Assembly (NCBI GenBank): GCA_016716465.1
Contig: JADJWH010000001.1
Span: forward strand, 365,414 to 429,413
From: Gammaproteobacteria bacterium
GTDB taxonomy: Bacteria; Pseudomonadota; Gammaproteobacteria; SZUA-140
Direction: 5' to 3'
Length of the DNA: 64,000 bases
Shown: in pieces, positions 1 to 60,021 of the stretch
How the letters are laid out: every line of letters begins with the position of its first letter
Position numbering within the stretch: the stretch's first letter is position 1
Position numbers and translations under genes: made by a program
The notes under the pieces: generated by a model
The model's input: the letters and a program-made list of their open reading frames with translations, nothing else
Told to the model about the DNA's origin: nothing
Databases searched by the model: none

Positions 1-543
1 GATCCGGACTTTCAGGGCGCGCCGTTTCAGAAGCTGATCGTGGTGGGCATTTCGGAGGTTGAAGGTAACCGCCGCATCTTCGAGGACGAGTTTTCCACCG
101 CGCTGCGCGCCAAGGGGCTGGAGGCGGTGCAGAGTTACACCCTGCTGCCGGAGACGGCAAAACCCGGCAAGAGCGACCTGGAGGAGGCGGTCAAACAGGT
201 GGGAGCCGACGGCGTGATCATCGCGCGGGTGGTCGACATCAAGCACAAGTCGGAATTCTCGCCGGGCTATGCCACGGTGGTCCCGGTCGCCGGATATCCG
301 TACGGAGTCTATCAATACTATGGTGGCGCGACGATCGTCACGCCTCCCACCGTCTATACTTATGAAGTCGTCCAGGTCGAAACCAGCCTGTGGCGCACCA
401 GTGATGCGAAGCTGGTCTGGTCGGCGACAACCGCCACGACGGATCCCGCCACACTCTCGAAAGAGATCCCCGGCTATACGAAGGTCATCCTCGGCGCCTT
501 GCAGGAGCGCGGACTGATCCCTGGCGGGATCAGTTCGCGTTAA
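1..543 (+). CDS. hypothetical protein, C-terminal fragment (the reading frame is open from base 1; the listed ORF starts at 40)
   Basis: Open frame continues to the window edge. High-GC codon usage matches the core genome. The stop at 543 is followed by a hairpin and T-run. No recognisable catalytic motif. Confidence 0.5.
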   Translation, partial: DPDFQGAPFQKLIVVGISEVEGNRRIFEDEFSTALRAKGLEAVQSYTLLPETAKPGKSDLEEAVKQVGADGVIIARVVDIKHKSEFSPGYATVVPVAGYPYGVYQYYGGATIVTPPTVYTYEVVQVETSLWRTSDAKLVWSATTATTDPATLSKEIPGYTKVILGALQERGLIPGGISSR

Positions 544-619
544 ACGAACCGGGCACGCCGGGTTCAGGCCTTGCCCCTGAGCCTGGCATGATAGGAAGGG
601 AGCGATCGACAAAACGAGA

Positions 620-655
620 GGGGACGGACGGGAAGGTCCGTCCCCTTTTGTTTTT
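620..655 (+). terminator. rho-independent terminator candidate
   Basis: 9-bp stem ggggacgga/tccgtcccc at 620-628 and 637-645, followed by ttttgttttt, about 77 nt downstream of the stop at 543. Confidence 0.5.
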
Positions 656-666
656 CGGGGCGGATG

Positions 667-690
667 GGGACAGATTTAAATCTGTCCCCT
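667..690. repeat. REP-like palindrome GGGGACAGATTT-AAATCTGTCCCC, copy 1
   Basis: Perfect 12+12 inverted repeat. Near-identical copies at 1531-1555 and 1578-1602. Confidence 0.7.
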
Positions 691-693
691 TGT

Positions 694-1518
694 TTAGTTT
701 TCCAGCGGCACCGGCACGTTCAGCAGCAGCGCCGGGTCCACGCGGACGCCGTTCAGGCTCACCCCCCAGTGCAGGTGCGGGCCGGTGGCGCGGCCGGTCT
801 TGCCGACCTTGCCGATCGGGTCGCCGCGCTTCACCGTCTGGCCCGCCTTCACATCGATCTCGCTCAGGTGGCAGTAGAGCGTGATGAGGCCCTGGCCGTG
901 ATCGAGGAAGACGCTGTTGCCGTTGAAGAAGTACTCTCCGGTGTCGGCCACGACGCCGTCGGCGGGGGCGTGGACCAGGGTGCCGGTCGGGGCCGCGAGA
1001 TCAAGCCCGCTGTGAGGTTTGCGCGGCAAGCCATTGAAAAACCTTTGTAGTCCGAAGGGACTGCTCTGCACGCCCGGCACCGGCAGGTCGAAGGCCGGCA
1101 ACCCGAGCGGGCGCTCCTCCCAGCGGTCGTAGATCGCCGTCATATGACGCGTCTCGCCCTCGATGCGCTTCAGATCCTCCGCCAGCGGCTCGACCTTGCG
1201 CTGGTCGGTGATGGTCAGATGCTGGGCGGCGTATTGCTTGCCCTGCACGGTGAAGGCGAGGGTGTTCGCCTTGTCGTCCGGACGGCCGAGGTACAGCCAG
1301 TGTTTGCCTACCTTGGTCTCGAGCGGGAGCCCGACCACGGCGACCCAGTCCTCGCCGTCACGCGCCACCAGCACGCGCCGGCCGGCGTAAAACGCGTGCG
1401 GCGGTTCCGCCGTTTTCGCCGGCAAGGGAATGAACGCGATGCCGCCGGGCACCGGCGCAGTGGCGGGGAGTTCGCGGGCATGCGCGGTGACGGCGATGAG
1501 CAGGGAGAGCAGCAGCAT
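694..1518 (-). CDS. M23-family (LytM-like) metallopeptidase, secreted
   Basis: C-terminal region FLDHGQG..LYCHLSEI..GDPIGKVGKTGRATGPHLHWGV matches M23 HxxxD and HxH motifs. A signal-peptide-like MLLLSLLIAVTAHA follows the ATG at 1518. The listed ORF extends to 1620 across the palindromic repeats, so 1518 is the more plausible start. Confidence 0.8.
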   Translation of the reverse strand: MLLLSLLIAVTAHARELPATAPVPGGIAFIPLPAKTAEPPHAFYAGRRVLVARDGEDWVAVVGLPLETKVGKHWLYLGRPDDKANTLAFTVQGKQYAAQHLTITDQRKVEPLAEDLKRIEGETRHMTAIYDRWEERPLGLPAFDLPVPGVQSSPFGLQRFFNGLPRKPHSGLDLAAPTGTLVHAPADGVVADTGEYFFNGNSVFLDHGQGLITLYCHLSEIDVKAGQTVKRGDPIGKVGKTGRATGPHLHWGVSLNGVRVDPALLLNVPVPLEN

Positions 1519-1530
1519 TAGCAGCGAGAT

Positions 1531-1602
1531 GGGGACGGATTTCAAATCCGTCCCCGTCCACTTCGAAGCAGCCCGCCGGGGACAGATTTCAAATCTGTCC
1601 CC
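1531..1602. repeat. Two tandem copies of the GGGGACRGATTTCAAATCYGTCCCC palindrome (1531-1555 and 1578-1602)
   Basis: Direct reading. They sit between the xseA stop (1613) and the M23 peptidase start. Confidence 0.7.
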
Positions 1603-1612
1603 TTCTTCACGC

Positions 1613-2983
1613 CTACTCATCCCGCGTCTCCTTCACGTCGCACAGCAGCCGGCCGCGGGCGAGGCGCGCCTCGACGCTGTCGCCGACGCCGAGCGTGCGC
1701 GCGTCGCGCACGATGCTGCCGTCGGGGCGGCGCACGATGGCGTAGCCGCGGCCGAGCGTCGCCAGCGGGCTCACGGCGTCGAGCGCGCGGCCGAGGCCGG
1801 TGATGCGGTCGCGATGGCGTTCGAGGCGGCGCCGCAAATGCTCGCGCAGGCGCTGGGCGAGGTGTTCACAGTGCTCGTGCGCGCGCTCGACCCGGTGCAG
1901 CGGCGTATGGCGCAGCAGCCGCGCGAGTCCGTGATCCAGCAACAGAAATCTGCGCCGGATCCCGGACCGCATGCCGCGCAGCAGCCGTTGTTCCAGTTCA
2001 TCAAGGCGCTGGGCCTGCTGGCGCAGACGCTGGCCCGGGTGCTGTTGCTGCAGGCGGCGGACAAGCCACTGCAGCCGCTCGGCGCGGCGCGCGAGACCCG
2101 CGCGCGTCACATCGCCCAGGCGTTCGTCCAGGCGATCCAGCCGGCGCAGCCAGTCGGCGCCGTCGGGGCTGACGCTTTCCGCCGCACCGGAAGGCGTCGG
2201 CGCGCGCAGGTCGGCGGCGAAATCCGCGATGGTGACGTCGACCTCGTGCCCGATGCCGGTGACGAGCGGGATGTCGCAGTCGGCGATGGCGCGCGCGACG
2301 ATCTCCTCGTTGAAGGCCCACAGGTCCTCCAGCGAACCGCCGCCGCGGCACAGGATCAGCACGTCGCACTCGGCGCGCGCCGAGGCCAGCCGGATCATGC
2401 GCGCGATCTCGGGCGCCGCCGTTTTGCCCTGCACCGGCACCGGGTACACCACTACCGGGATGGCCGGGAAACGCCGCCGCAGCACGGTGAGCACGTCGTG
2501 GATCGCCGCGCCCGTCGGTGAGGTGATCACGCCAATGCGGCGCGGCAGCGCCGGAATGGGCTGCTTGCGCTCGGCCTCGAACAGACCCTCGGCGAGCAGG
2601 CGCTGCTTGAGCTGCTCGAAGGCGCGGCGCAGGGCGCCGTCGCCGGCTTCCTCCAGGGATTCGACGATGAGCTGGTAGTCGCCGCGCGCCTCGTACAGGC
2701 TGACGCGCGCCCGCGCCAGCACCTGCATGCCGTCGGCGGGGCGGAAGCGGATCAGCTGGTTGCGGTTACGAAACATCGCGCAGCGCACCTGCGCCGCCGC
2801 GTCCTTGAGCGAGAAATAGAGGTGGCCGGAGGAGGGGCGGGCGAGGTTCGACAGCTCGCCCTCCACCCACAACAGGGGCAGGCCGGACTCGAGCAGCTCG
2901 CGCGCCTCGCGGTTCAGGCGCGAGACCGAATAGACGTCGCGTCCGGGCGTCGCGTCCCCCGGCAAACCGAGTTCTTCATCCAT
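1613..2983 (-). CDS. xseA: exodeoxyribonuclease VII large subunit
   Basis: N-terminal OB-fold region RDVYSVSRLNREARELLESGLPLLWVEGELSN...GHLYFSLKD and overall length match XseA. It is divergent from guaB, as in many proteobacteria. Confidence 0.93.
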   Translation of the reverse strand: MDEELGLPGDATPGRDVYSVSRLNREARELLESGLPLLWVEGELSNLARPSSGHLYFSLKDAAAQVRCAMFRNRNQLIRFRPADGMQVLARARVSLYEARGDYQLIVESLEEAGDGALRRAFEQLKQRLLAEGLFEAERKQPIPALPRRIGVITSPTGAAIHDVLTVLRRRFPAIPVVVYPVPVQGKTAAPEIARMIRLASARAECDVLILCRGGGSLEDLWAFNEEIVARAIADCDIPLVTGIGHEVDVTIADFAADLRAPTPSGAAESVSPDGADWLRRLDRLDERLGDVTRAGLARRAERLQWLVRRLQQQHPGQRLRQQAQRLDELEQRLLRGMRSGIRRRFLLLDHGLARLLRHTPLHRVERAHEHCEHLAQRLREHLRRRLERHRDRITGLGRALDAVSPLATLGRGYAIVRRPDGSIVRDARTLGVGDSVEARLARGRLLCDVKETRDE

Positions 2984-3106
2984 AAGGCGCCATGATACCC
3001 CAGGCGACGGCCAAAAAACGCTTTCGGGCTAAGGATTTGCCGCAGTTTACCCGGCCCCTCCGGATCCTTATAATAGTCAGAATTTTTCTCCGGCAGGCGG
3101 AACGTT

Positions 3107-4567
3107 ATGAAAATCCTGGAAGACGCACTCACTTTTGACGATGTCCTGCTCCTCCCCGACCACTCGACGGTGCTGCCGAAAGAGGTCAACCTGCGCACGC
3201 GCCTGACGCGGACGATCACCCTCAACATCCCGCTGATCTCCTCCGCCATGGACACGGTCACCGAGGCGCGGCTGGCCATCGCGCTGGCGCAGGAGGGCGG
3301 CATCGGCATCGTGCACAAGAACATGCCGGCCGACCAGCAGGCCCAGCAGGTGCGCATGGTGAAGAAGTTCGAGAGCGGGGTCATCAAGGATCCCATCACG
3401 GTCGGCCCCGACACCAGCGTGCGCGACGTGCTGAACCTCACGCGAGAGAACCAGATCTCCGGCGTGCCGGTGGTGCGCGGCGAGGACCTCGTCGGCATCG
3501 TCACGCGGCGCGACCTGCGCTTCGAGACCAATCGCGACCAGCCGGTCTCCGCCATCATGACGCCGAAGGAGCGCCTGGTGACGGTGAAGGAGGGCGCCGA
3601 GCGCGACGAGATCATCCGGCTGCTGCACAAGCACCGCATCGAGAAGGTGCTGGTGGTGAACGACAGGTTCCACCTGCGCGGCATGATCACCGTGAAGGAC
3701 ATCCAGAAGGCGAAGGACTTCCCCAACGCGTGCAAGGACGACTACGGCCGCCTGCGCGTGGGCGCCGCCGTCGGCACCGCCAATGACGAGCGCGCCGAGG
3801 CGCTGGTCGCCGCCGGGGTGGACGTGATCGTGGTCGATACCGCCCACGGCCATTCGCAAAAGGTGCTCGACACGGTGCGCTCGATCAAGAAGCGCTACCC
3901 CGACCTGCAGGTGATCGGCGGCAACATCGGCACCGCCGAGGCGGCGCGCGCGCTGTACGAGGCGGGCGCGGACGCGGTCAAGGTCGGCATCGGCCCCGGC
4001 TCGATCTGCACCACGCGCATCGTGACAGGCGTCGGTGTGCCACAGGTCAGCGCGATCGCCAACGTCGCCAACGCCCTGCGCGGCACCGACGTCCCGCTGA
4101 TCGGCGACGGCGGCATCCGCTTCTCGGGCGACCTCGCCAAGGCCATCGCCGCCGGCGCGCACTGCGTGATGATCGGCAGCATGTTCGCCGGCACCGAGGA
4201 ATCGCCGGGCGAGGTCGAGCTGTACCAGGGCCGCTCCTACAAGTCCTATCGCGGCATGGGCTCGCTCGGTGCGATGGCCGAGGCCTACGGTTCCTCCGAC
4301 CGCTACTTCCAGGATGCCGAATCGGCGGTGGAGAAGCTGGTGCCGGAGGGCATCGAGGGCCGCGTGCCGTACAAGGGCTCGGTGATCGCGATCCTGCACC
4401 AGCTGATCGGCGGCCTGCGCGCCAGCATGGGCTACACCGGTTGCCACAACATCGACGAGATGCGCACCAAGCCGCGCTTCGTCCGCATCACCACCGCCGG
4501 CATACGCGAGAGCCATGTCCACGACGTCAGCATCACGAAAGAGGCGCCGAATTACCGGATCGATTAA
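3107..4567 (+). CDS. guaB: IMP dehydrogenase
   Basis: 486 aa. Tandem CBS domains and catalytic region [31 protein letters not shown]-like sequence upstream. Confidence 0.97.
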
Positions 4568-4595
4568 GGGCGGGACGAGCTGAATTTCGTTCGTC

Positions 4596-4663
4596 ATTCC
4601 CGCGGAGGCGGGAATCCAGTCCGGCCGAGCAGACTGAACCCTGGATCCCCGCTTTCGCGGGGA
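4596..4663. repeat. Pair of 8-bp-stem palindromes (ATTCCCGC-ggag-GCGGGAAT at 4596-4615 and ATCCCCGC-tttc-GCGGGGAT at 4644-4663), REP/BIME-like
   Basis: Read directly in the guaB-guaA intergenic region. The flanks ggaatccag and ctggatcc are also mutually inverted. Confidence 0.55.
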
Positions 4664-4690
4664 TGACAGAAAAAGGCAGAGAACCGTAGG

Positions 4691-6343
4691 GTGGGCAGGG
4701 CGCCCCGTGCCTTGCCCACGGAATCACCACCGCAACCAAAAGAATCGACCGCCTTGGCCACCGCATCTCATCCGAACATCCACGCCGACCGCATCCTGAT
4801 CCTCGACTTCGGCTCGCAGTACACCCAGCTCATCGCGCGCCGCGTGCGCGAGGGCAAGGTCTACTGTGAGCTACACCCCTGGGACATGGATCCGGAGGCG
4901 ATCCGCGCGTTCCGGCCGAAGGGCATCATCCTGTCGGGCGGGCCGGACAGCGTCACCGCGGCGGACACCGGGCGCGCGCCGCCGGTGGTGTTCGAGCTCG
5001 GCGTGCCGGTGCTCGGCATCTGCTACGGCATGCAGACCATGGCCGCGCAGCTCGGCGGCAGGGTGGAGAGCGCGAAGCATCGCGAATACGGTTTTGCCCA
5101 GGTGCGCGCGCGCGGCCATACGCAACTGCTGCGCGACATCGAGGACCATGCCACGCCCGAGGGCTATGGCATGCTCGACGTGTGGATGAGCCATGGCGAC
5201 CATGTGATCGACCTGCCGCCCGGCTTCAAGCTGATGGCGAGCACCGATAATGCGCCCATCGCCGGCATGGCGGACGAGGCGCGGCGCTTCTACGGCGTGC
5301 AGTTCCATCCCGAGGTCACGCACACGCGCCAGGGCCAGCGCATCCTCGAGCGCTTCATGCACGAGGTTTGCGGCTGCGCCGCGCTGTGGACCTCCGGCAA
5401 TATCATCGACGACCTGATTGCGCAGATGCGCCGGCAGGTGGGCGAGGACCACGTCATCCTCGGCCTGTCCGGCGGTGTCGATTCCTCCGTGGTCGCCGCG
5501 CTGCTGCACCGCGCCATCGGCGACCAGCTCACCTGCATCTTCGTCGACAACGGCCTGCTGCGCCTGAACGAGGGCGACCAGGTCATGGCCGTGTTCGCCC
5601 AGCACATGGGCGTGAAGGTGATCCGCGTCGACGCCGAGGCACGCTTCCTCGGCGCGCTGAAGGGACTCAGCGACCCCGAACACAAGCGCAAGGCCATCGG
5701 CAAGACCTTCATCGAGGTGTTCGAGGACGAGGCCGGCAAGCTGAAGAACGCCAGGTGGCTCGCCCAGGGCACCATCTACCCCGACGTGATCGAATCCGCC
5801 GGGGCCAAGACCGGCAAGGCGGCCGTGATCAAGTCGCACCACAACGTCGGCGGCCTGCCCGAGGACATGAAGCTCGGCCTGGTCGAGCCGCTGCGCGAAC
5901 TGTTCAAGGACGAGGTGCGCCGCATCGGCGTCGAACTCGGCCTGCCGTCCGACATGGTCTATCGCCATCCCTTCCCCGGCCCCGGCCTCGGCGTGCGCAT
6001 CCTCGGCGAAGTGCACAAGGAATACGCCGACATCCTCCGCCAGGCCGACGCCATCTTCATCGACGAGCTGCGCAACAGCGGCTGGTACGACAAGGTGAGC
6101 CAGGCCTTCGCCGTCTTCCTCCCCGTCAAATCCGTCGGTGTCATGGGCGACGAACGCCGCTACGACTACGTCGTCGCGCTGCGCGCCGTCGAGACCATAG
6201 ACTTCATGACCGCCCGCTGGGCGCATCTGCCGTACGAACTCCTCGAACATGTTTCCAACCGGATCATCAACGAAGTGCGCGGGATATCGCGGGTGACTTA
6301 CGATATTTCCAGTAAGCCGCCGGCGACGATTGAGTGGGAATGA
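4691..6343 (+). CDS. guaA: GMP synthase (glutamine-hydrolysing)
   Basis: [21 protein letters not shown], glutamine amidotransferase Cys (GICYGMQ), ATP-PPase SGGVDSSV, and C-terminal ...KPPATIEWE. The true start may be later than 4691, for example the in-frame TTG at 4754, because homologues begin near ...[11 protein letters not shown]. Confidence 0.95.
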
Positions 6344-6350
6344 TTCCACG

Positions 6351-6454
6351 TCTGGCACTGGCTGGCACCAGCAGGCACCAAACAGAACATAACACATTGT
6401 ATTTAATAGAATAATCCTATTTATATCTGGCACCTGCTGGCACTGGCAGGCACC
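6351..6454. repeat. Two 29-nt imperfect direct repeats, TCTGGCAC...GCAGGCACC, at 6351-6379 and 6426-6454
   Basis: Read directly just downstream of the guaA stop. Possible att-site-associated or recombination-directionality protein binding repeats. Confidence 0.5.
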
Positions 6455-6471
6455 GCCAAGCAAAGTTTTTT

Positions 6472-6625
6472 AATGGTATAAATCATGGTATCGTCGCCCA
6501 CAGGATCAGGGCTGCGACAAAATACCATGCCATGTTATTCAGTGTATTCATGGTATTAAAAATCATTAAGTACCTGAAAATAAAGAAAAAACACCAGAAA
6601 AATGTACCATGAAATAGCATGGTAT
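6472..6625. promoter_or_regulatory. Cluster of six (C)ATGGTAT / ATACCATG 8-mers upstream of int (putative arm-type or regulatory sites plus int promoter)
   Basis: Copies at 6472, 6484, 6522 (inverted), 6549, 6604 (inverted) and 6618, in an AT-rich ~300-bp leader. RBS GGGGAGGA at 6637. Confidence 0.5.
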
Positions 6626-6647: not shown

Positions 6648-7850
6648 GTGATGCTGACGGATACCAAGCTCCGAAATTTGAAGCCCCAGGACAAGCTCTA
6701 CAAGGTGAACGACCGCGATGGGCTCTATGTGGCGGTGACACCAGCGGGAGGTATCTCCTTCAGATACAACTATTCGATTAGCGGTCGACAGGAGACGCTG
6801 ACGATAGGCCGGTATGGCAAGCGTGGCGTCACGCTTTCAGAAGCGCGAGAACGCGTCAGCGAAGCAAAGAAGATGATTGCGGCAGGGAAGTCACCGGCCA
6901 GGGAAAAGGCGCGTGACAAGAAGCGCGTGAAGAATGCCGAGACGTTCGGTGCATGGGCCGAAAAATGGCTGCGCGGCTATCAGATGGCTGAGTCGACACG
7001 CGACATGCGCAAGTCAGTCTACAACCGTGAGTTGAAGAAGCGGTTTGGCAATCAGAAATTGTCCGAGATTACCCATGAGGATCTCCGGGCAGTGACTGAT
7101 TCCATCGTCGAAAGAGGGGCTCCGGCAACAGCAGTTCATGCTCGTGAAGTAGTGTTGCAGGTTTTTCGTTGGGCAATTGAGCGCGGGCAGAAAGTAGAGA
7201 ACCCGGCGGAACTGGTTCGCCCTACCAGTATCGCCAGATTCGAGCCGCGCGATCGGGCATTGAGTCCTGCTGAAATTGGTCTGATGTATCGGTATATGGA
7301 TCGAGTCGGAACGTCGCCGCAATATAGAGCCGCGATAAAACTGCTGTTGCTGACCATGGTGAGAAAATCCGAGCTGTCCAATGCCACCTGGGCTGAGATC
7401 AATTTCAGCGAGGCTCTTTGGACTATTCCGAAAGAGCGAATGAAGCGCAGAAACCCGCACCTGGTGTATCTGTCACGTCAGGCTCTGGACATCTTTATCG
7501 CTTTAAAGACCTTTGCAGGTGGATCCGTATTTGTGCTCCCCTCGCGCTATGACTCAGACATCCCGATGAGCGCCGCTACCTTGAACCGCGTTCTGGCATT
7601 GACGTATCAGGCGGCCCAGAAAGACGGCGAACAGCTCAGCAAATTTGGCCCGCACGATCTGCGTCGTACAGCCAGCACCCTATTGCATGAAGCCGGCTAT
7701 AACACTGATTGGATTGAAAAGTGTCTTGCCCACGAGCAGAAAGGCGTGCGGGCAATCTATAACAAAGCCGAATACCGGGAGCAACGAGCTGCAATGTTAC
7801 AAGATTGGGCGGATATGATTAACGAGTGGACTAACGTGAAGCGGCAGTAA
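6648..7850 (+). CDS. int: P4-type tyrosine integrase
   Basis: N-terminal DUF4102-like LTDTKLRNLKPQDKLYKVNDRDGLYVAVTPAGGISFRYNY. C-terminal catalytic HDLRRT...IYNKAEY (R-H-R-Y). An ATG at 6651 is also possible as start. Confidence 0.9.
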   Translation: MMLTDTKLRNLKPQDKLYKVNDRDGLYVAVTPAGGISFRYNYSISGRQETLTIGRYGKRGVTLSEARERVSEAKKMIAAGKSPAREKARDKKRVKNAETFGAWAEKWLRGYQMAESTRDMRKSVYNRELKKRFGNQKLSEITHEDLRAVTDSIVERGAPATAVHAREVVLQVFRWAIERGQKVENPAELVRPTSIARFEPRDRALSPAEIGLMYRYMDRVGTSPQYRAAIKLLLLTMVRKSELSNATWAEINFSEALWTIPKERMKRRNPHLVYLSRQALDIFIALKTFAGGSVFVLPSRYDSDIPMSAATLNRVLALTYQAAQKDGEQLSKFGPHDLRRTASTLLHEAGYNTDWIEKCLAHEQKGVRAIYNKAEYREQRAAMLQDWADMINEWTNVKRQ

Positions 7851-8465
7851 ATTTTAGTAACTGAGGCCCGATCAGACACACAATGCCTGATTCCAAAGCG
7901 GACGTAGGCGATCGTCGGCTTTGGGCGGCTGCCGGCCAAAAAGCGACCACTCGGCCGGGAAATCCGAACGTCCGCTTTCCGTCGATGCGGTAACCCTCCA
8001 CCCTACGTGACAACTGCACGATTCCAAGAGGCTTAGCTGCTCGACTCGATGCAGGATGGTAGCGGGGGCAGGATATGCTCTGTTCCGACAGTTCCTATGC
8101 GAATTCATCTAAAGTAACCTCACTCTGTCAATAGACGCAAGCGCACCGGTACGGATTTTTTATCATACAAGACAGTGCACTCCAGATAGTATTTACGCCA
8201 TCAAGGATTGTACAACTTGACCAAAGGCTGAGCGTTCGCGATGTTTGATAACTCTGCGTATTCTTCTCAATTTACGCGCGCAGGCGCAGCGTAGGAGATA
8301 CTCGCCAAAGGCCTAAGTATTCTCGCTATGCAGCAGGAGACGGCTGGAAAACCAATGCAATGTTGGCTCAATATGCAAAAGTGATCGACGCGCTACACGG
8401 TGGTTCTGCGGAACTCGATGAGAAGTGCGGGCGAAGCCTGATCATGAATTAAGGAGAAATACAAC

Positions 8466-11400
8466 GTGAATTTCGGAATCTACCATAAGGCCCTTTTGGC
8501 TACGACCTTTTTGGTTTCTTCATCGGTTCTTGCCGACGATCTTATTCAAGTTGATTTTCCTGCACCCGAATCCTCCTGCTCGTCAGGCGTTGTATGCGGT
8601 TCTCACCGACTTCTTATCCAGTCCCGCTATTCAAGAGATCCTGCGCGATTCAATGTGATGCGCGAACTGTATCGTGGCAACCCCTCACGCGCTCGCGAAG
8701 TAATGATTGGATATCAGGAGTACTACAGCCCATTTCATTTCGAACCGTCGATCTGGGATTTTTATAGTGTAGGGCGAACTATTTTCTCAAAAAATCCTAT
8801 CAAGTCCGGCGCCCCAAAGGCTCTCAGATGGCTAACCACAGACGATGTCTTTCCAGAGGGACAAAGAAAACCGAAGTTTGTTAACCCAGATCAATTCACC
8901 AATCCCGCGATGGAAGGTCGCCCTTTAACGTCCGATCGAATTGAGTATTTGCGTCGAAAGAGGGAGATCCAAGACGATCCAGATACGGGTCGAACCGACA
9001 AACAGTTCCTAAGGTTTTTCGCGACTGATGACGGTGTAATTCAAAGAGACGACGTGTCTGGATATGAACAAGACATACTAATTCTTTCCAGCATACCTGC
9101 CGAAGAGGCCGACAAGCGCCAGAATTACGTCTCCTACATGAATCAAAAGTATGGACACACACCCGAGACGATTGAACAGGGTGTCCTAGTGGCTCGTGAC
9201 TATATTGCCAAAGACTCGAATTCACCCCTTATCGGGCAAGAGGAAGAGGCGTTTCGAAGACTTCGCGAGAACCATGAAGACGAGATAATAGAAATAGAGA
9301 ACAAGATGGCGGGACTCGAGCAGTTGCGCCGCCAAGACGATGCCAATCAACTGCAGATCCAACAATTAGAGAAAGAGATAGCTCAAAAAGCCAGTGCTCT
9401 AGAAGAAAAACTTAGAACCGAACATGCTGAGAGCGGTGAGCAGTTACTATCTGAAGCATCCTCTGACGAAGAGCCAGTCAATCAAGAACAGGAGGCCCCT
9501 CCAGCAGCTGACGAAACGGTTGCAGCACAACCACCAAAAGAGGTAACTCCGAAATGCGGCAAGCATTCTTATGGCGGAGCCCCTCTTTGTTCAGATCACC
9601 ATTATGAGCTTACCGTTTTCGGCCTAACAGGCGAACTTATGGGTAATACTATCATTCTATTTGGCGGTGACGCCGACGTGGCTGCGAAATTTGACGGCTT
9701 TTCGAAAGGAATCATCTACGGAGCGGACGGACTCAGTTATCTAAGTAAGAACGGCTTCGGTGGAGACCCCACGGACGTCCTTACAGCGATGAACTCGGTG
9801 GCTTTTTCGGCGAACCTGCTAATTAGTGTCTTCTCGTCGGGTGAAGAAGATCCTATGCAAGAAGTGTTCGAACAGCTTTTCGCAATTCTCGATGTCCTTC
9901 TCCAGCAACAACAGCAAATACTAGAGAACCAACAGGACATGATCGCCTCACAAGCCTCCATCCTTTATTCCATCGAAACGATTCGATCTGCTCTTCAAAA
10001 TCTGCAAGAGCAGGAGCTCGAACAGCGCGCACTTATCTTGCAACAATTCGCAAACACGAATTCGTTGGTTACGGCATCTTATGTCGATCTCCAATCAAGA
10101 ATCGAAGCGCTACGAGAAGATGTGGCGCTTGCCCCTCTCTATATCGCTATAGATAACCTTCAAGCCGCTTTAAACCTCAATGCCGATGACAACCATGAGT
10201 TGACGCAGGAGTCTCAGGATTTGAGCCAAGCCGTTGCAAGACTGAACATACCTATTCGTCGCTTGCCTCTGAATCCCCCGCAGCTGACCATTCAACAACT
10301 CAAGGACGAGTACAACTCAAATTGGACTGAAAAACGTCGTGCGATTTCCTCTAACGATGCCAGGTTGCATTACTGGGCTTTACTTAGCCCGTTTTGCAAA
10401 GACGAGCTAACCTGTTCCGTCTATAAAGGAGCTCCCGATGTGGAGGGCCTTCAATCCCTAGCAAACACCTACGCGACTGCGGCCGACCTACTCTCTATGA
10501 CACCAGAAGGGCGCGATTTTCTGCAACAAGACATTACCGGTACGTTCGCTGAACTATCCAATGCCATTGAACAACTCAACGCTATCACGCAAGTGGCGCG
10601 TCGCCATTTGCCTCAGATATACGAGAACTACGCGTCATCGATTGAAGAGCTGAGGAGTCTCACCCACCAATACGGTACGGCAGCCTTGGCATCGGTAGGC
10701 GGCACTCAATTCGGCGCCTCTCCTCTACTCCGATATCCCTGGAGAAACTTCCAATCGTTACCCGATGGTACCGCGCCTCGTCAAGTCACGTTTGACCTTT
10801 CCCAAGGTCACCTGGATGAAGTCTTGATTCAACTAATGCAGGAGAATGTTCTTCGACTTGCTCCCGAGGCCCTTGAACAGATGACCGAGGAACAATTGGC
10901 CAATCATTCGATGATGAAGGAGTACCGTTCACTCTATTTGTCCTCTCGGGTCGCTGCGAATCTCGGCCTCGGCATTTTCAGAAAAGACCCATGGCCTCGT
11001 TACGACCAGACTTCTAATCTTCAAAATAACCATGATCGCCGACACTTCCTTCATCTATTTTTGATGGCAGATCCGCTGATGGTTGAAGATGACGCCGTAC
11101 GTGGCCGCCTAGAGTCCCTTATGTCCCGTGAAACAGGAGATAAGGCGATCTACGATGCGGCGATTACCAAAGGGTGGATTACCAATGTCCTCGGCGGTAG
11201 CGCATACGCGTCAAATATGTTCGAAATCTACGATGGTGGAGCGGCGCCTGCTAACAATCCCTATTGCCGGTCATATCAAACATTGGGTATTCCGAGCAGC
11301 ATGTGCGTGGTCAAGGCGGCTGAGCGGTGGATTACAGATCACCCTGTTGAGGTACCAATGAACCAGGAGAGATGGGAGGTGGTCCGTCCTTGCGGCGTCG

Positions 11401-12116
11401 ACCATCAGTACTGGTGTTTCAAATCCAGCCAATCCGACGACCCAGATTATATCAAGAAAGTTATTCGCAAGGAGGTCGACACCATAAACGCCGTTCGTTT
11501 TCGCGCTATTCAACTAGCGTCCCAAGACGTTCTCGGCGTCCTCATGGCCCAATGGAACAGCACCCTCCTGAACGGAATCTCTAACTACGACGCCCTACCT
11601 GCGCCAGTCAACTCAAATAGGCTATCCGAATTAGCAACCGCGCTATATGGCGGGCGCAAGAAACTAGAAGCTGCACGTCTTGCATACATACTCGCCCTTG
11701 AAGTCGCGTACGGTGAGGAATGCATCTATTCCCCACGGGCGCATAAGACCCTGCTCGCCCAAGGCCAACTACTGGCGACTAATCGATTCTTGTCCTCTCC
11801 ATCATTAACGCCAAAGGGTGAAGATAAAGGTCTACTTAAAGATCTAGCTGAGCCTATTCGAATGATGGAATCGTCAATGCATTATGCCGCTGCCATTGAT
11901 CTTTCACAGGAAGGCGCTCTGCCTGAGCTAGCGGACATTAAATATTCTTGCGCCGTAGGACTTGGAGGGGCAGACCGTCTCGCCCAGTATGCATCAGTTC
12001 ATCACGCTTGGGTTTCGAAACATGGCGCTGATCCAGACGCGGTTTTCGACGAGTATCTTCAGGTATTCCGCGACGATACCCCGCCTGACGCTGTTGCTGA
12101 AGAGGCTATTCAGTGA
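8466..12116 (+). CDS. Large secreted protein of unknown function (1216 aa), Sec signal peptide, long coiled-coil/Q-rich central region
   Basis: N-terminus MNFGIYHKALLATTFLVSSSVLADD. ~48% GC, far below the island (~58%) and core (~70%). No catalytic motif recognised. Confidence 0.8.
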   Translation: MNFGIYHKALLATTFLVSSSVLADDLIQVDFPAPESSCSSGVVCGSHRLLIQSRYSRDPARFNVMRELYRGNPSRAREVMIGYQEYYSPFHFEPSIWDFYSVGRTIFSKNPIKSGAPKALRWLTTDDVFPEGQRKPKFVNPDQFTNPAMEGRPLTSDRIEYLRRKREIQDDPDTGRTDKQFLRFFATDDGVIQRDDVSGYEQDILILSSIPAEEADKRQNYVSYMNQKYGHTPETIEQGVLVARDYIAKDSNSPLIGQEEEAFRRLRENHEDEIIEIENKMAGLEQLRRQDDANQLQIQQLEKEIAQKASALEEKLRTEHAESGEQLLSEASSDEEPVNQEQEAPPAADETVAAQPPKEVTPKCGKHSYGGAPLCSDHHYELTVFGLTGELMGNTIILFGGDADVAAKFDGFSKGIIYGADGLSYLSKNGFGGDPTDVLTAMNSVAFSANLLISVFSSGEEDPMQEVFEQLFAILDVLLQQQQQILENQQDMIASQASILYSIETIRSALQNLQEQELEQRALILQQFANTNSLVTASYVDLQSRIEALREDVALAPLYIAIDNLQAALNLNADDNHELTQESQDLSQAVARLNIPIRRLPLNPPQLTIQQLKDEYNSNWTEKRRAISSNDARLHYWALLSPFCKDELTCSVYKGAPDVEGLQSLANTYATAADLLSMTPEGRDFLQQDITGTFAELSNAIEQLNAITQVARRHLPQIYENYASSIEELRSLTHQYGTAALASVGGTQFGASPLLRYPWRNFQSLPDGTAPRQVTFDLSQGHLDEVLIQLMQENVLRLAPEALEQMTEEQLANHSMMKEYRSLYLSSRVAANLGLGIFRKDPWPRYDQTSNLQNNHDRRHFLHLFLMADPLMVEDDAVRGRLESLMSRETGDKAIYDAAITKGWITNVLGGSAYASNMFEIYDGGAAPANNPYCRSYQTLGIPSSMCVVKAAERWITDHPVEVPMNQERWEVVRPCGVDHQYWCFKSSQSDDPDYIKKVIRKEVDTINAVRFRAIQLASQDVLGVLMAQWNSTLLNGISNYDALPAPVNSNRLSELATALYGGRKKLEAARLAYILALEVAYGEECIYSPRAHKTLLAQGQLLATNRFLSSPSLTPKGEDKGLLKDLAEPIRMMESSMHYAAAIDLSQEGALPELADIKYSCAVGLGGADRLAQYASVHHAWVSKHGADPDAVFDEYLQVFRDDTPPDAVAEEAIQ

Positions 12117-12534
12117 GTTCTCGCAATGCACACTCCACTTTCTGACGATCTTCCTCAATGCGTTCTATCGCCTGATTCAGGTTTATAATCTCTTGTTCTT
12201 TGTTTAGCCCATTACCGACCGACACGTCATTTCTTCGTTGCCTGAGCGCTGAGAGTTGACCAGCTACCCCCTCTAGCTGCCACTTTGCTCTTTCGATGTA
12301 TCCATCGATATCGCGCGACTGATTCGGGCTTAGCGATGTTTTCTGTCCGCTCGAGAAAACGTCGAATGAAACACCAGTCAATATCCCGCAATTACTCCAG
12401 GCCTTGTAAACCTTTTCTAAGGTGCCAGGTGTGAAGCTTTCCTCGGCGGACGACACCCCTGCCAATATGACGAACCACACGCATGTAAGAAACAGCTGTT
12501 TCACTCGCATTCCCTCCTCATTAACAAAATACAT
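12106..12534 (-). CDS. Small secreted coiled-coil protein (start probably at the internal Met at 12510)
   Basis: MRVKQLFLTCVWFVILAGVSSAEE signal peptide. Convergent with the 1216-aa gene and overlapping its 3' end by 11 nt. Same low GC. Confidence 0.55.
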   Translation of the reverse strand: MYFVNEEGMRVKQLFLTCVWFVILAGVSSAEESFTPGTLEKVYKAWSNCGILTGVSFDVFSSGQKTSLSPNQSRDIDGYIERAKWQLEGVAGQLSALRQRRNDVSVGNGLNKEQEIINLNQAIERIEEDRQKVECALRELTE

Positions 12535-13131
12535 GTTACATCAATATATTCTTGTGGCCTCACGACTTGATATTTCATTGCCGCAAAATGTATCGGTGCT
12601 CGACTTCGCTTGTCATCCATCGAAACTGGGCCTAGGCAAATCACTTGTTCTGCCCGACGGCCCAGTTCTTTTGTCATACTTCGTCAGGCTATATTTGTAG
12701 CGATGGCGCCGATACGCGAAGCGAAAGCTTACTGTGGGACGGATGTATACTCGCCCGCCAACTCTGACGAAGACCACGGCCAAAATTTGCCGGAGCAAAT
12801 CCGAGGGAAGCCAGGAAGGCTCGAGTAGTCCTACATGATCTGCTTGGGCCGATTTAAAAATCGGGCTGGGTAGGACGGGAGCCGTTGGACCGAATTCGAC
12901 GCCCATCCCGCTGCCCTCTTGAAGAATACGGTCGGAACGAGTGTCGGATCAGACTGTACCGGGGGCCTGATTTGCATCTATCGCGTTCGAGTTGAGTTAT
13001 TGCTGGGCGCAAAAGCGGACGTTCCAAGCACTAGGCCTGAGAGTCGCCTTTGGGCACAAAGGCGACTTAGAGGCAATGTCCGCGTTCCGCCAGTTGAGGG
13101 TGTCAGTTTCGATCCTATCGGCCACTGTCTG

Positions 13132-13401
13132 TCAGATCGGGTCTGAACTTCTACAAGTAAATCTGTTACAAGTAAATCCAGGGCAGTGTGCTCGATCCTC
13201 AGACTCTTTGCGCGACTCAATCCAATCTTCGACCTCGGCTAGGTCCCACGCGACATTGCGGCTTGTCAGTACGATTCGGCGCGGAAAATCGCCGCGTTTT
13301 TCCATGTTGAAAATGGCGCGGTCTGAAAGCGGAATCATCGCCAGCAGTGTTTTCCGGTTTATTAATGCCTTGCTCGGGCGGTTTTGGTTTCCAGCGTCCA
13401 T
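13132..13401 (-). CDS. alpA: AlpA-family phage/ICE transcriptional regulator (HTH)
   Basis: ...MEKRGDFPRRIVLTSRNVAWDLAEVEDWIESRK matches the AlpA/MerR-like consensus (FP.P..L......W...EV..WI). The true start may be the internal Met near 13338. Confidence 0.7.
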   Translation of the reverse strand: MDAGNQNRPSKALINRKTLLAMIPLSDRAIFNMEKRGDFPRRIVLTSRNVAWDLAEVEDWIESRKESEDRAHCPGFTCNRFTCRSSDPI

Positions 13402-13656
13402 TGGCTATCTCTGTTGCCCCTGGCGGTGCCTCTCAGAATCGTGGGTTTGTGATATCTGAACATTAGCACCGTGCAAATCATCTTGGCAAAAGAGAATGTT
13501 TAGCAAAGTGATAAACACCTTGCCGGATCATTCGGTGGTAAGGGTGGATCGGAGTAGGGTGACCGGTCGTGACAGCATGTCACCCGCGACAATCACCTGA
13601 GATTTAGCCCCTGGTTGGGATTCTTCTTGCTCACGTTCTGAGCAGACGAGGATAGT

Positions 13657-14343
13657 TCAGACCACTTCCCCCTTAAAGACGATAACGCCGCAGATTGTGG
13701 CTTCTTCATCAACTTCAATGATGCGATTTGGCCAGTCAGGATTGAGCGCTTTCAGGTACTGCTTTCCGTCTTCGATAATCAGTTGTTTGAACGTTGCTTC
13801 ATTAGATTCATCGAGTCGAACAACCACATACTTGCCGTGATCCGCTGAGACATTGGGATCAACGAAGATCAAGTCACCCTCATGAAATTTTGGCTCCATG
13901 CTGCTTCCTCGAACCCTGAGGACGAAGGATTCCGGGCTGCAACGCACCGGGCAGGGTAAAAGCTCGGCCCCGTACGCCGGAACAAAGCTCTCAGAAACTT
14001 CGTACCAATTCCCGGCCTGAACCCAAGAGATAAGCGGGTGGAGACTGCGCAAATCGGGACCGTCGTGGGCGTTATTTTCTTCGTGTGGCGTGGTCCCCTT
14101 TGCAGGCGGGGTATCCATCCATCCTTGGGGCTTTTTCATTGCCTTTTCCAGTTTTCCCGCCAGTTCGTCTCCGATAGAACGTGGGGTGCCTTTCTTGGTG
14201 GGAAGCTGATTGCGAACCTGGCTGAGATAGGAGCTATTTGTCCCAGCCATGCGTGCCAGCTTGGCGGCCGACCCTGCTTCGGTAATCAGAGCTTCGAGGT
14301 TGTGGAGCCGAATCTGATTGTGTTTTAGCGTCATGCGAAACAA
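13657..14343 (-). CDS. CI/LexA-like repressor with C-terminal S24 peptidase domain
   Basis: N-terminal HTH (AGTNSSYLSQVRN). GSSMEP Ser nucleophile motif and downstream TFKQL Lys. Divergent from a cro-like gene. Confidence 0.85.
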   Translation of the reverse strand: MFRMTLKHNQIRLHNLEALITEAGSAAKLARMAGTNSSYLSQVRNQLPTKKGTPRSIGDELAGKLEKAMKKPQGWMDTPPAKGTTPHEENNAHDGPDLRSLHPLISWVQAGNWYEVSESFVPAYGAELLPCPVRCSPESFVLRVRGSSMEPKFHEGDLIFVDPNVSADHGKYVVVRLDESNEATFKQLIIEDGKQYLKALNPDWPNRIIEVDEEATICGVIVFKGEVV

Positions 14344-14374
14344 TTTAGCAGAATGTTTAGCAGAATGCTAAGCA
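14344..14374. promoter_or_regulatory. Operator-like tandem repeat TTTAGCAGAATG x2 containing palindrome TAGCA-N3-TGCTA, between the divergent cI-like and cro-like genes
   Basis: Read directly. A related ATGTTTAGCA also occurs at ~13495 downstream of alpA. Confidence 0.5.
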
Positions 14375-14399
14375 AAAACCGGAACCGCGTCGTTGTTCA

Positions 14400-14723
14400 A
14401 TGATTCGCTCGGTGCTAATGTTTCTAAGCATGGAGCTAAAGGAATTTCTCAAGATGGCAACCAAGCGGGAACGCGCTGATGTCGCTGTGGCATGCAGTGA
14501 TTCAGTGTCCTACTTGTATCAGATTGCCGGAGAACACCGCTATGCGAGCCCCTGGATGGCGACGCAGATCGAGCGGCAGACGCGTGCTGTGGCCGACCTT
14601 TCCGATGGCCGATTAGAGCCAGTGCCCCGGGCAAGCATGGTCCGTCACCCTGAAATCTTCTACGACGTCGGTCTGCGAGAAAATACTCAAGAAACGGGTG
14701 GAAACGATGACGGCACCCGATGA
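14400..14723 (+). CDS. Cro-like small DNA-binding protein (start uncertain: 14400, 14430 or 14454)
   Basis: Position divergent from the CI-like repressor and ~100 aa size. No strong motif. Overlaps the ParB-like start. Confidence 0.45.
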   Translation: MIRSVLMFLSMELKEFLKMATKRERADVAVACSDSVSYLYQIAGEHRYASPWMATQIERQTRAVADLSDGRLEPVPRASMVRHPEIFYDVGLRENTQETGGNDDGTR

Positions 14724-23118: not shown

Positions 23119-23985
23119 ATGCGAGACCTGAACTACCAATTGAAGCAAATGTGTCAGCGCAACCGGGATGGCAGCTACAGTACCCAGGCCAACCGGGCGC
23201 GTATGCTTAACCAGATCGCCAATCAGTTGCAGGAGATGGGGTACCGGCGCATGACCACGCGATCTCTCAAGCCGAAGCATGTGGACGCGCTTGTCCAGCG
23301 CTGGCTCAGTGACGGTATGGCGGCCGGTACCATAAAGAACCGCATGAATTGTCTGCGGTGGTGGGCCGCCAAAGTGGATCGGCGTAACGTTATCGCACGA
23401 TCAAATGACTTCTACGGCATCCCCGATCGACAATTCGTCAGTAACGATTCCAAGGCGGTTGCTGTTGACGACAATGCACTGTCTAACGTCAAAGACGACC
23501 ATGTACGCATGAGCCTGGAACTTCAGCGCGCCTTTGGCCTGCGCAGAGAGGAGGCAATCAAATTCATGCCAGGTTACGCTGATCAGGGCGATCATGTTCG
23601 CCTGAAGGCCTCCTGGACGAAAGGCGGCAAGGCGCGCGTTGTGCCGGTGCACCACAAGGAACAGCGTGATGTCTTGGATCGAGCCCACCGACTGGTGGGA
23701 TCCGGTTCCCTGATTCCCCCGCAGAAAAATTACATTCAGCAGTTGCGTACCTACGAGCGTCATACCACTCAGGCAGGTTTGTCGAAACTGCATGGCCTGC
23801 GCCATGCGTATGCTCAGTCACGCTATCAGGCGTTGACGGGTTGGGCCTGTCCTGCGGCGGGTGGTCCGACCGCAAAAAGTTTGAGTGCTGAGCAACGACA
23901 GCAGGACCATCAGGCACGACTCACCATCAGTCGCGAATTAGGCCATGTTCGCGAACAGATCAGCGCCGTTTACTTAGGGCGATAA
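23119..23985 (+). CDS. tyrosine recombinase (phage integrase family) internal to the ICE
   Basis: C-terminal HGLRHAYA...AVYLGR. Typical of the XerD-like gene preceding the T4SS region in this ICE family. Confidence 0.7.
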   Translation: MRDLNYQLKQMCQRNRDGSYSTQANRARMLNQIANQLQEMGYRRMTTRSLKPKHVDALVQRWLSDGMAAGTIKNRMNCLRWWAAKVDRRNVIARSNDFYGIPDRQFVSNDSKAVAVDDNALSNVKDDHVRMSLELQRAFGLRREEAIKFMPGYADQGDHVRLKASWTKGGKARVVPVHHKEQRDVLDRAHRLVGSGSLIPPQKNYIQQLRTYERHTTQAGLSKLHGLRHAYAQSRYQALTGWACPAAGGPTAKSLSAEQRQQDHQARLTISRELGHVREQISAVYLGR

Positions 23986-50443: not shown

Positions 50444-50670
50444 TCGTTTTCGTACCAGCCGGTAGCATCGGTGCCGTCATCGAGTTTCCCTGTTCTGTAA
50501 TTCAGGGCTCCGCCTCGAACAGCACTGGAGACTGCATCATCAGACGTGGTGTCAGCGCTTTCAGCCAGCATACCAAGCATACTGCGCAGTAACTGGCCGA
50601 CCGCTGCAAAAATAGCGAAGACGGCTAGCAATATCTTTTGCAAACGAGGCCTTTCTTTTACTGTTGTCAC
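50440..50670 (-). CDS. small single-TM protein, last gene of the minus-strand defence operon
   Basis: Its ATG overlaps the stop of the DUF499 gene (ATGA coupling). Hydrophobic helix [15 protein letters not shown]. Confidence 0.45.
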
Positions 50671-53516: not shown

Positions 53517-53526
53517 GCTTTAGTCC

Positions 53527-56436: not shown

Positions 56437-56445
56437 TGATAAACC

Positions 56446-60017
<3,572 letters not shown>

Positions 60018-60021
<4 letters not shown>

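Follow-up and report, generated by a model that had tools for sequence, protein, structure and literature searches.

The window analysed here, a stretch of 64,000 nucleotides from a gammaproteobacterial MAG, contains an ICE with TraD, TraC and TraG_N. Its integrase, which follows guaA, is 86.6% identical in amino acids, over 99% of its length, to the integrase that pAB3 and other plasmids carry. Four copies of a CTGGCAC-type repeat between the two genes probably serve the element as att or arm-type sites. Its alpA homologue shares 74% identity with that of pAB3 and lies on the opposite strand. Between the integrase and alpA are two convergent genes, a large one and a small one, whose features are collected in Table 1. 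Beyond alpA, the S24 repressor gene is flanked by operator-like palindromes (TTAGCA-N3-TGCTAA) at 13463-13514 and 14325-14439; eight matches were found where 1.3 were expected, and seven of the eight lie here. Control of the two genes by the ICE repressor was considered and rejected, since the palindromes surround only the repressor gene and none lies upstream of either gene. The window contains no Rfam family and no tRNA, and no direct or inverted repeats were found to bound the two-gene region.

Table 1. Features of the locus, by position in the window.
Feature	Position	Strand	Remarks
guaA	4691-6343		
29-nt repeat, CTGGCAC type, four copies	6351..6464	.	between guaA stop and int; short blastn matches upstream of GIsul2 integrase
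Tyrosine integrase, GIsul2 type	6648..7850	+	Pfam Phage_integrase, Arm-DNA-bind_3, Phage_int_M; left boundary; specific for guaA 3' end
Leader of large gene	7851..8465	+	non-coding, 615 nt; carries AAGGAG 8451-8456
Large gene	8466..12116	+	1216 aa; MBK9130361.1 in NCBI annotation of the MAG, same start
Signal peptide of large protein	8466..8534	+	aa 1-23; predicted cleavage between VLA and DD; sequence reading
First E/Q/K-rich helical, coiled-coil-like stretch	9228..9470	+	~aa 255-335; composition, heptad score, long helices in both AF2 models
Gly/Ala/Ser-rich hydrophobic region, conserved	9603..9845	+	aa 380-460; contains hydrophobic helix aa 438-456
DPMQE motif, then long Q-rich heptad-repeat helix	9846..10250	+	aa 461-595
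Invariant C-x5-C pair	10395..10415	+	C644/C650; invariant alignment columns
C-terminal motif R-x(6)-AL-x-LGYG-x-DC	11676..11723	+	aa 1071-1086; R1071, Y1082, G1083, C1086 invariant
Motif C-x-x-G-x-x-G	11949..11969	+	C1162 and G1165 invariant
Overlap of the two 3' ends	12106..12116	.	11 nt, CTATTCAGTGA; identical in L001
Small gene	12106..12504	-	132 aa from GTG 12504; NCBI call identical
Sigma-70-like promoter match	12587..12616	-	ATGACA-18-TACATT, 83 nt upstream of small-gene start; consensus match only
alpA-family gene	13132..13401	-	Pfam Phage_AlpA; right boundary; inverted relative to int
S24 (LexA/CI-like) repressor gene	13657..14343	-	flanked by operator-like palindromes

The sequence-only reading had described the region between integrase and alpA as a separately acquired low-GC sub-island, with 48% GC against 58% in the ICE and 70% in the core. 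The lower GC content is real, but the figures have to be corrected to 50.3% (7851-13131), 55.4% for the ICE and 67.0% for the core. The dip is modest, the lowest 5.28-kb window in the remaining ICE having 52.5% (sd 1.2 points), and it continues into alpA (51.1%) and the gene for the S24 repressor (52.5%), so that the proposed sub-island has no sharp right edge. The related genes described below lie 4-11 GC points under their flanks in five of the six other loci. Low GC thus travels with the gene family, and a separate acquisition does not follow from base composition alone. An insertion or rearrangement between int and alpA is likely, judging from the GIsul2 gene layout, relative to which alpA is inverted and 5.3 kb away.

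The large gene is real. It has full-length distant homologues, an unbroken 3.65-kb ORF, a dN/dS of about 0.25 and a strong Shine-Dalgarno sequence, AAGGAG, 9 nt upstream of its GTG start. In the leader, no Rfam family and no promoter resembling the sigma-70 consensus were found. The N-terminus of the protein, MNFGIYHKALLATTFLVSSSVLA followed by DD, reads as a Sec signal peptide with n, h and c regions in order, and the mature protein has a mass of ~133.5 kDa and a pI of 4.8. The coiled-coil centre noticed earlier was recovered by heptad scoring, with heptad or coiled-coil-like stretches at about aa 276-322 and 464-595, and so was the richness in Q and E, which together reach 21-25% within aa 201-400. 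The absence of a recognisable enzyme motif was likewise borne out, and there is no match in Pfam, NCBIfam, PHROG or PADLOC. The cysteines fall in six close pairs, and C1086 and C1162 are likely to form a disulfide. Lipobox, LPxTG motif and C-terminal hydrophobic segment are all absent from the protein, in which no outer-membrane anchor or secretion signal was seen.

The small gene exists as a convergent ORF at 12106..12534 on the reverse strand, whose 142 aa are a mechanical maximum. Its most likely start is GTG 12504, which is preceded by GAGGAGGG at 12519-12512 with a 7-nt spacer. The product begins with a putative signal peptide, MKQLFLTCVWFVILAGVSSA followed by EE, which is its sole hydrophobic segment. 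The mature protein (~12.6 kDa) is acidic, contains two Cys and is helical in its C-terminal half. It has no match in the family libraries (Pfam, NCBIfam, PHROGs, PADLOC) and none in the PDB by phmmer. Its only other copy, 96% identical in amino acids and with a dN/dS of 0.24, is found in L001, a 97%-identical metagenomic copy of the locus, against which the large gene has a dN/dS of 0.25 over the last 103 codons. Both genes are thus real, judging from purifying selection relative to L001 and strong Shine-Dalgarno sequences, and both products appear to bear Sec-type signals. The 11-nt overlap of the 3' ends was stated exactly and is kept in the L001 copy. Short convergent gene overlaps are not rare in bacteria, and the suggested interference between the two transcripts is speculative.

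An exhaustive phmmer search over 1.84 billion representatives placed the large protein in a family of seven clusters, the query included. The six distant homologues have 1140-1281 aa and are 17-25% identical over the aligned length. All seven members have a hydrophobic, signal-like segment at the N-terminus. The cysteines C644/C650 and C1086/C1162 are invariant and C38/C44 nearly so, and the Cys count is even in six of the seven. The invariant positions include no D, E, H, S or K, the maximum being D421 in six of seven members. Conservation within the family is highest in the windows covering aa 401-500, and in all members a hydrophobic helix precedes a long heptad helix. At the aligned position of the former, Kyte-Doolittle peaks of 1.4-1.9, spanning ~15-19 residues, occur in 7/7 members. 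A hydrophobic helix of ~15-19 residues could also be merely a buried core helix.

Relatives are rare in every collection searched. With tblastn the large protein matched nothing among 72,556 plasmids and 50,697 phages, and neither megablast with the region nor tblastn with P0006 or the small protein gave a match in the plasmids. Pattern scans with tblastn confirmation detected no relative in the GTDB genome set, viral contigs or JGI metagenomes, and an exact 35-mer across the overlap is absent from the JGI metagenomes. A word-indexed search of 5.8 billion proteins, with the family profile included, returned self matches only, candidate selection having probably been swamped by low-complexity words. 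Pfam searches with all seven members yielded coiled-coil noise only. Among PDB sequences, phmmer with each protein found no match and the family profile found only coiled-coil matches at E 0.02 or weaker. The AF2 models of the large protein are poor (mean pLDDT 38.8 and 45.1), and fold searches are therefore uninformative; with these low-confidence models, Foldseek gave no match at E <= 1e-3 in the PDB and none in BFVD.

Several specific identities were considered and set aside. For helical pore-forming toxins (ClyA/Hbl/Nhe, XaxAB/YaxAB) and IpaB-type translocators, the PDB profile search listed only the IpaB coiled coil, at E 1.4-2.7. A phage tape-measure protein would be expected neither from PHROGs, where no match is significant, nor from BFVD, where Foldseek reached E 0.16 or weaker, and there are no tail genes nearby. 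For anti-phage defence proteins in PADLOC-DB, the best values were E 0.56 for the large and 0.048 for the small protein, both non-significant.

At most loci the family gene is a single gene on a mobile element. It is accompanied by ArdA, KlcB, a PLD nuclease, RadC and a coupling protein in L002, and by two Replic_Relax genes, a resolvase, a type I R-M system and SSB in L004 and L005. In L007 its neighbours are an IS1595 transposase on one side and a weak IS200-like match on the other, and in L003 it belongs to a variable region that also contains a YcaO RiPP cluster, a reverse transcriptase and SIR2. The link of the family to defence or anti-defence neighbours is based on three to four loci. 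The view of the large and small genes as a pair was not sustained by the refuting check that the sequence-only reading had itself named, as the two occur together solely in copies of this one element that are nearly identical. A conserved partner was rejected after phmmer comparison with all nearby ORFs, since none of the six homologue loci has a small-protein homologue or a shared neighbour, and Pfam analysis of small genes next to the homologues gave no support for one. To judge from gene content, the small gene would be a lineage-specific neighbour and not a proven partner of the large protein. The large gene is probably solitary mobile-element cargo, encoding an exported, probably non-enzymatic envelope protein of a previously undescribed family.

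The reading favoured here, to which a probability of about 35% is given, is that the locus encodes two Sec-exported proteins, the large one being an exported, disulfide-stapled, helical and apparently non-catalytic cargo protein of the mobile element with a role in the envelope. The precursor of the large protein would be exported via Sec and its signal peptide removed, and five to six disulfides would form in the periplasm. The protein might then act within the envelope through binding or insertion and not through catalysis, a view suggested because D, E, H, S and K are all missing from the invariant residues and no family or PDB match exists. The active part is likely to be the Gly/Ala-rich hydrophobic helix region at aa 380-460, where conservation in the family is strongest, together with the adjoining heptad helix, which exceeds 90 residues. 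The most tentative step is the last one, in which the large protein would serve the mobile element as an envelope-level barrier, excluding incoming DNA or phage or giving some similar protection. The small protein may bind or modulate the large one in this particular element. To be set against the barrier function, there is no homology or fold match for any function and PADLOC is empty. The large protein is also unlike the exclusion proteins known from Gram-negative bacteria, which are small lipoproteins or reside in the inner membrane.

A rather unlikely alternative is that the large protein is a membrane-active, bacteriocin-like toxin that would damage competitors' membranes through its hydrophobic and heptad region, with the small exported protein as the immunity protein neutralising it in the periplasm of the producer. 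A convergent immunity gene downstream of the toxin gene is typical of membrane-acting colicins (pore formers) and of colicins M and Z (PMC6668396). Both products here would be sent to the same compartment, the hydrophobic block is conserved in the family, and carriage on mobile elements with a patchy, rare distribution would fit a toxin. Immunity proteins are often non-homologous between relatives, and genes for unrelated membrane or exported proteins lie just downstream of the family gene in L008 (201 aa) and L006 (272 aa), but several loci (L002, L004) offer no candidate partner. Moreover, Pfam and the PDB profile search revealed no Colicin, ClyA/Hbl or other toxin domain, conservation covers the full length including the C-terminus, unlike the swapped tips of polymorphic toxins, and nothing indicates how the protein would cross the outer membrane. 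Apart from its signal peptide, the small protein lacks transmembrane segments, in contrast to the immunity proteins of pore formers. Colicins are generally known to lack a signal peptide and to require a lysis gene, and neither applies here.

It is improbable that the large protein is an adhesin of the cell surface, or a matrix or structural protein of the envelope, carried by the ICE for attachment or aggregation and perhaps aiding mating pairs. Its size, export, Cys-pair stabilisation and coiled-coil richness would suit such a function, as would a MAG host annotated by NCBI as a gammaproteobacterium. Against it, an outer-membrane anchor, an autotransporter barrel, a lipobox, a T1SS/T9SS signal and repeat domains are all absent; the protein is modelled as helical and not as rich in beta-repeats, and most loci of the family are not linked to conjugation genes.

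More speculative still, and very improbable, is that the family represents a new class of membrane-engaging exported proteins carried by mobile elements, in which the hydrophobic segment and the heptad helix would operate by a spring-loaded or insertion mechanism, similar to that of viral class I fusion or penetration proteins, to remodel or fuse envelopes for DNA transfer, or to keep rival elements and phages from entering at the envelope. An ordinary periplasmic protein with a housekeeping function, or ORFs that are spurious or decaying in a spacer richer in AT, could be invoked from the absence of annotation and of a consensus promoter upstream of the large gene, but this is scarcely credible and is largely refuted by purifying selection on both genes, by conserved motifs in full-length homologues, by an uninterrupted reading frame with a strong ribosome-binding site and by the restriction of the family to seven clusters, mostly on mobile elements.

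If the reading as an envelope protein is right, an undescribed family of large exported proteins is carried as a single gene by mobile elements of distant bacteria, and no relative of it is detectable among the toxins, adhesins, exclusion proteins and defence proteins known so far. Such families are a likely source of new envelope-level conflict mechanisms, including conjugation or phage exclusion and membrane-active toxins. If the spring-loaded or insertion mechanism were true, it would amount to a conflict system of a new kind, acting at the envelope and unrelated to the known toxins, exclusion proteins or defence systems. The novelty lies in a family that is unassignable to anything known; at present it is a well-characterised 'hypothetical protein', and no new mechanism is claimed. 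The family is small and has a clear core of Cys pairs, hydrophobic helix and heptad helix, which makes it easily tested.

Among known systems, PrgA of pCF10 limits unwanted conjugation at the envelope (bioRxiv 10.1101/2020.06.18.156562). The large protein resembles PrgA/Sea1 of enterococcal conjugative plasmids in general shape only, both being large, encoded by a conjugative element and provided with a signal peptide and a long helical coiled-coil stalk. Unlike PrgA/Sea1, the large protein has no CAP or protease domain in Pfam, and no family member has an LPxTG anchor. Foldseek, run with a low-confidence model, listed the PrgA structure 6z9l as a non-significant hit (E 0.28, probability 0.07), the PDB profile search gave no sequence match to it, and PrgA comes from Gram-positive bacteria, unlike the large protein.

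Class I viral fusion glycoproteins such as coronavirus S2 share the succession of signal peptide, N-terminal region, hydrophobic Gly/Ala-rich segment and Q/N-rich heptad repeat. Spike HR1 fragments are the only PDB profile matches in the heptad helix, at E 0.08-8, which is the level of coiled-coil noise and not significant. In contrast to these proteins, no member of the family has a C-terminal membrane anchor, a second heptad repeat was not identified, and no PDB or BFVD fold match was obtained.

Pore-forming colicins have a ten-helix C-terminal pore domain with a hydrophobic hairpin of ~40 residues, are made without a signal peptide and are released by a lysis protein. Like them, the large protein is sizeable, is encoded on a mobile element with a small gene behind it in opposite orientation, and has a multi-domain layout in which one segment is helical and hydrophobic. 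It differs in that none of the seven members has the Colicin domain of Pfam, the PDB profile search gives nothing below E 0.02 and the hydrophobic peak is ~15-19 residues long. All members have a Sec-type N-terminus, and there is no lysis-like small lipoprotein ORF within 7851-13131. The orientation of the small gene matches that of a colicin immunity gene, whose product is a multi-pass inner-membrane protein, whereas the small protein appears soluble and exported, with one hydrophobic segment. A partner gene of this colicin-like kind, encoding the small protein, was not found at other family loci.

The closest relative of the element itself is GIsul2, with which it shares the integrase, alpA and the same site directly downstream of guaA, at the identities given above. 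In the pAB3 copy of GIsul2, alpA follows int on the same strand after 147 nt, whereas here it is inverted and the 5.3-kb two-gene region lies between. The backbone of GIsul2 is small, and the rest of the present element is a large conjugative element.

Two real genes lie beside the integrase of the ICE, and the sequence-only reading, which had described a large Sec-secreted protein and a convergent small secreted protein with overlapping 3' ends, was largely right; its weaker points were the pair as a conserved unit and the argument from base composition. The large ORF opens with a GTG 9 nt past AAGGAG, and the same start is used in the NCBI annotation of this MAG (MBK9130361.1, 'Gammaproteobacteria bacterium', contig of 1.52 Mb). 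Another gene caller picked an internal ATG, giving 1152 aa (P0001), with which the signal peptide would be lost; the long form is favoured by its ribosome-binding site and by the signal-like N-terminus that every homologue has. The start of the small gene is most likely the GTG at 12504, 7 nt past GAGGAGGG. Both N-termini have the layout of a cleavable Sec signal peptide, with cleavage between SSSVLA and DD in the large protein and between AGVSSA and EE in the small one, and neither contains a lipobox. A metagenome contig from ENA (L001, 828 nt) has the small gene, 96% identical in amino acids, and the final 103 codons of the large gene, with the 11-nt overlap unchanged. The pN/pS ratios against this contig, 0.24 for the small and 0.25 for the large gene, derive from only 23 nucleotide differences and point to purifying selection on both. 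Distant full-length homologues further support the large gene as real.

The large protein marks out a family that is unannotated, very rare and assignable to no known kind. No significant match was found in Pfam, NCBIfam, PHROGs, PADLOC or PDB sequences. An exhaustive phmmer search over 1.84 billion cluster representatives returned P0001, the shorter call of the same gene, and six distant relatives of 1140-1281 aa (P0006, E 1e-88; P0007-P0011, E 4e-33 to 6e-7), 24-28% identical across the matched stretches. Relatives were absent from PLSDB plasmids and INPHARED phages by tblastn, and from GTDB representative genomes and JGI metagenomes by pattern scans confirmed by tblastn. In the full-length alignment of the seven sequences, identity to the query is 17-25% and every member has a hydrophobic signal-like N-terminus. 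The cysteine pairs C644/C650 and C1086/C1162 are invariant and C38/C44 nearly so; the 12 cysteines of the query form six close pairs, and all but one of the seven members have an even count, as would be expected if folding takes place outside the cytoplasm. A hydrophobic block rich in Gly, Ala and Ser (aa 380-460) includes a hydrophobic helix that aligns at one position in all seven; immediately after the block come the motif DPxQE and a long heptad helix rich in Q (aa 461-595). Conservation is highest over aa 401-500. The C-terminal motifs are ALxLGYGxDC and CxxGxxG. The absence of a recognisable enzyme motif, noticed earlier, was borne out: none of the D, E, H, S and K residues is invariant in the alignment, and R712 and R1071 are the only invariant charged residues, which makes a catalytic role unlikely.

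The structure predicted by AF2 is mostly helical, apart from a small beta region around aa 915-985, and its confidence is poor (mean pLDDT 38.8 from the single sequence and 45.1 from the seven-sequence alignment; pTM 0.36). Foldseek searches of PDB and BFVD with this low-confidence model returned only generic long-helix proteins, all at E > 1e-3, among them MukB, PrgA and tape-measure proteins. The family profile found only coiled-coil-level matches among PDB sequences. Within the heptad helix, at aa ~472-565, the sole matches were coronavirus spike HR1 fragments, which were not significant (E 0.08-8, best 0.077).

The relatives are encoded in diverse, often mobile surroundings. P0006 (L002) lies with ArdA, KlcB, a PLD nuclease, RadC and a T4SS coupling protein, P0011 (L004/L005) with two Replic_Relax genes, a resolvase, type I R-M and SSB, and P0007 (L007) with an IS1595 transposase and a weak IS200-like match. 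P0009 (L003) belongs to a variable part of the chromosome, along with a YcaO/TfuA RiPP cluster, a reverse transcriptase and SIR2, and P0010 and P0008 lie on short contigs (L006, L008). A T9SS-tail protein and a GC content of 37% in L006 suggest that members probably occur in two phyla or more. Beside none of the relatives is there a small-protein homologue or another common neighbour, so the pairing proposed from the window is not a conserved one.

The low-GC island described earlier corresponds to a real dip, the lowest equal-sized window across the rest of the ICE reaching 52.5%, but it is smaller than claimed, runs on through alpA and the gene for the S24 repressor, and has no bounding repeats. 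GC3 is 0.49 in the large gene against 0.60-0.71 in the transfer genes. Of the six other loci, five (L002, L003, L004, L007, L008) have a family gene that falls 4-11 GC points under its flanks, with GC3 of 0.29-0.47. Low GC is thus a trait of this gene family wherever it is located, and not of an insertion in the window alone. This weakens the deduction of a separate acquisition from GC, though gene order still makes an insertion or rearrangement likely. The integrase shares 86.6% identity with the guaA-specific integrase of GIsul2 type on pAB3 and other plasmids, which occur in Acinetobacter, E. coli, Morganella and Providencia. In pAB3 (L009 9001-10572) int is followed after 147 nt by alpA on the same strand; in the window the alpA homologue, at 74% identity, lies 5.3 kb from int in the opposite orientation. 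The interval between them, with the two genes, therefore reads as a rearranged or inserted segment within an int-alpA module. A GIsul2-like integration module appears to have recombined onto a large conjugative element, which sits just 3' of guaA and encodes a TraD-type coupling protein, TraC, TraG_N and a ParM-like protein.

Features of the window and their base composition
Feature	Position	Strand	Remarks
Core	1-6343		67.0% GC
ICE outside 7851-13131			55.4% GC
29-nt CTGGCAC-rich repeat, four copies	6351-6464		between guaA stop and int; probably att or arm-type sites
Short matches to sequence upstream of GIsul2 integrase	6351-6464, 6522-6594		
Integrase (int)	6648-7850		
Low-GC region	7851-13131		50.3% GC
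AAGGAG	8451-8456		
Large gene	8466..12116	+	1216 aa
Stretch of heptad helix with spike HR1 matches	~9880-10160		not significant
3' overlap	12106-12116		11 nt
Small ORF, longest extent	12106..12534	-	
Small gene	12106..12504	-	132 aa
alpA	13132-13401	-	
Palindromes (seven of eight)	13463-13514, 14325-14439		flank S24/LexA-like repressor gene
Recombinase-like gene, second in ICE	23119-23985	+	Pfam Phage_int_SAM_2, Integrase_1
1794-aa ORF in transfer region	31573-36957	+	sole match a weak AAA ATPase
Gene cluster	50667-60923	-	DUF499 ATPase, DUF1156 methylase-like, SNF2/ResIII helicase with NOV_C domain, WYL regulator
KAP-family NTPase gene	61283-63130	+	adjoins the cluster; together they look like defence-type cargo of the ICE

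The mature small protein is acidic, about 12.6 kDa, with two cysteines and a helical, heptad-like C-terminal half. Its only homologues are near-identical copies, and Pfam, NCBIfam, PHROGs, PADLOC and PDB gave no match. The gene shares its strand with alpA and the S24 repressor gene, and a sigma-70-like match lies 83 nt upstream of its start; as no terminator-like site was found between alpA and the small gene, read-through from alpA is possible. The palindrome TTAGCA-N3-TGCTAA occurs eight times in the window against 1.3 expected by chance; it clusters nowhere but around the repressor gene, where seven of the eight lie, and is absent upstream of both the large and small genes. The ICE repressor probably uses these seven sites as operators to control alpA and the divergent promoter region.

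The descriptive part of our reading can be held with considerable confidence: real genes, export signals, conserved cysteine pairs, a hydrophobic-plus-heptad core, no catalytic signature, a solitary large gene on mobile elements, and extreme rarity. The large protein would be exported by Sec, form disulfides and act in the envelope through contact with the membrane or another protein. In the weakest step, it would protect the mobile element there, by exclusion or defence; with this role included, we put the whole reading at about 0.35. Protection is preferred because most loci carry the gene alone, its conservation extends over the whole length, and defence or anti-defence cargo is often found around it. 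A toxin with immunity and an adhesin are both judged somewhat less likely than element protection, on the basis of a handful of loci and not of homology. The large protein is a reasonable, though not urgent, target, as its family can be assigned to no known kind.

Among known systems, the large protein lacks the defining features of ClyA-type and IpaB-type toxins, tape-measure proteins and PADLOC defence families. Class I fusion proteins were likewise rejected: the hydrophobic Gly/Ala-rich segment precedes the heptad helix as the fusion peptide precedes HR1 in coronavirus spike, but the C-terminal anchor of such proteins is absent. Membrane-acting colicins, whose defining features are also missing, are resembled only in the convergent small downstream gene (PMC6668396). 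PrgA is likewise exported, encoded by a conjugative element and equipped with a long helical stalk (bioRxiv 10.1101/2020.06.18.156562); the defining features of its family are lacking, and the large protein resembles such surface-exclusion proteins in general form only.
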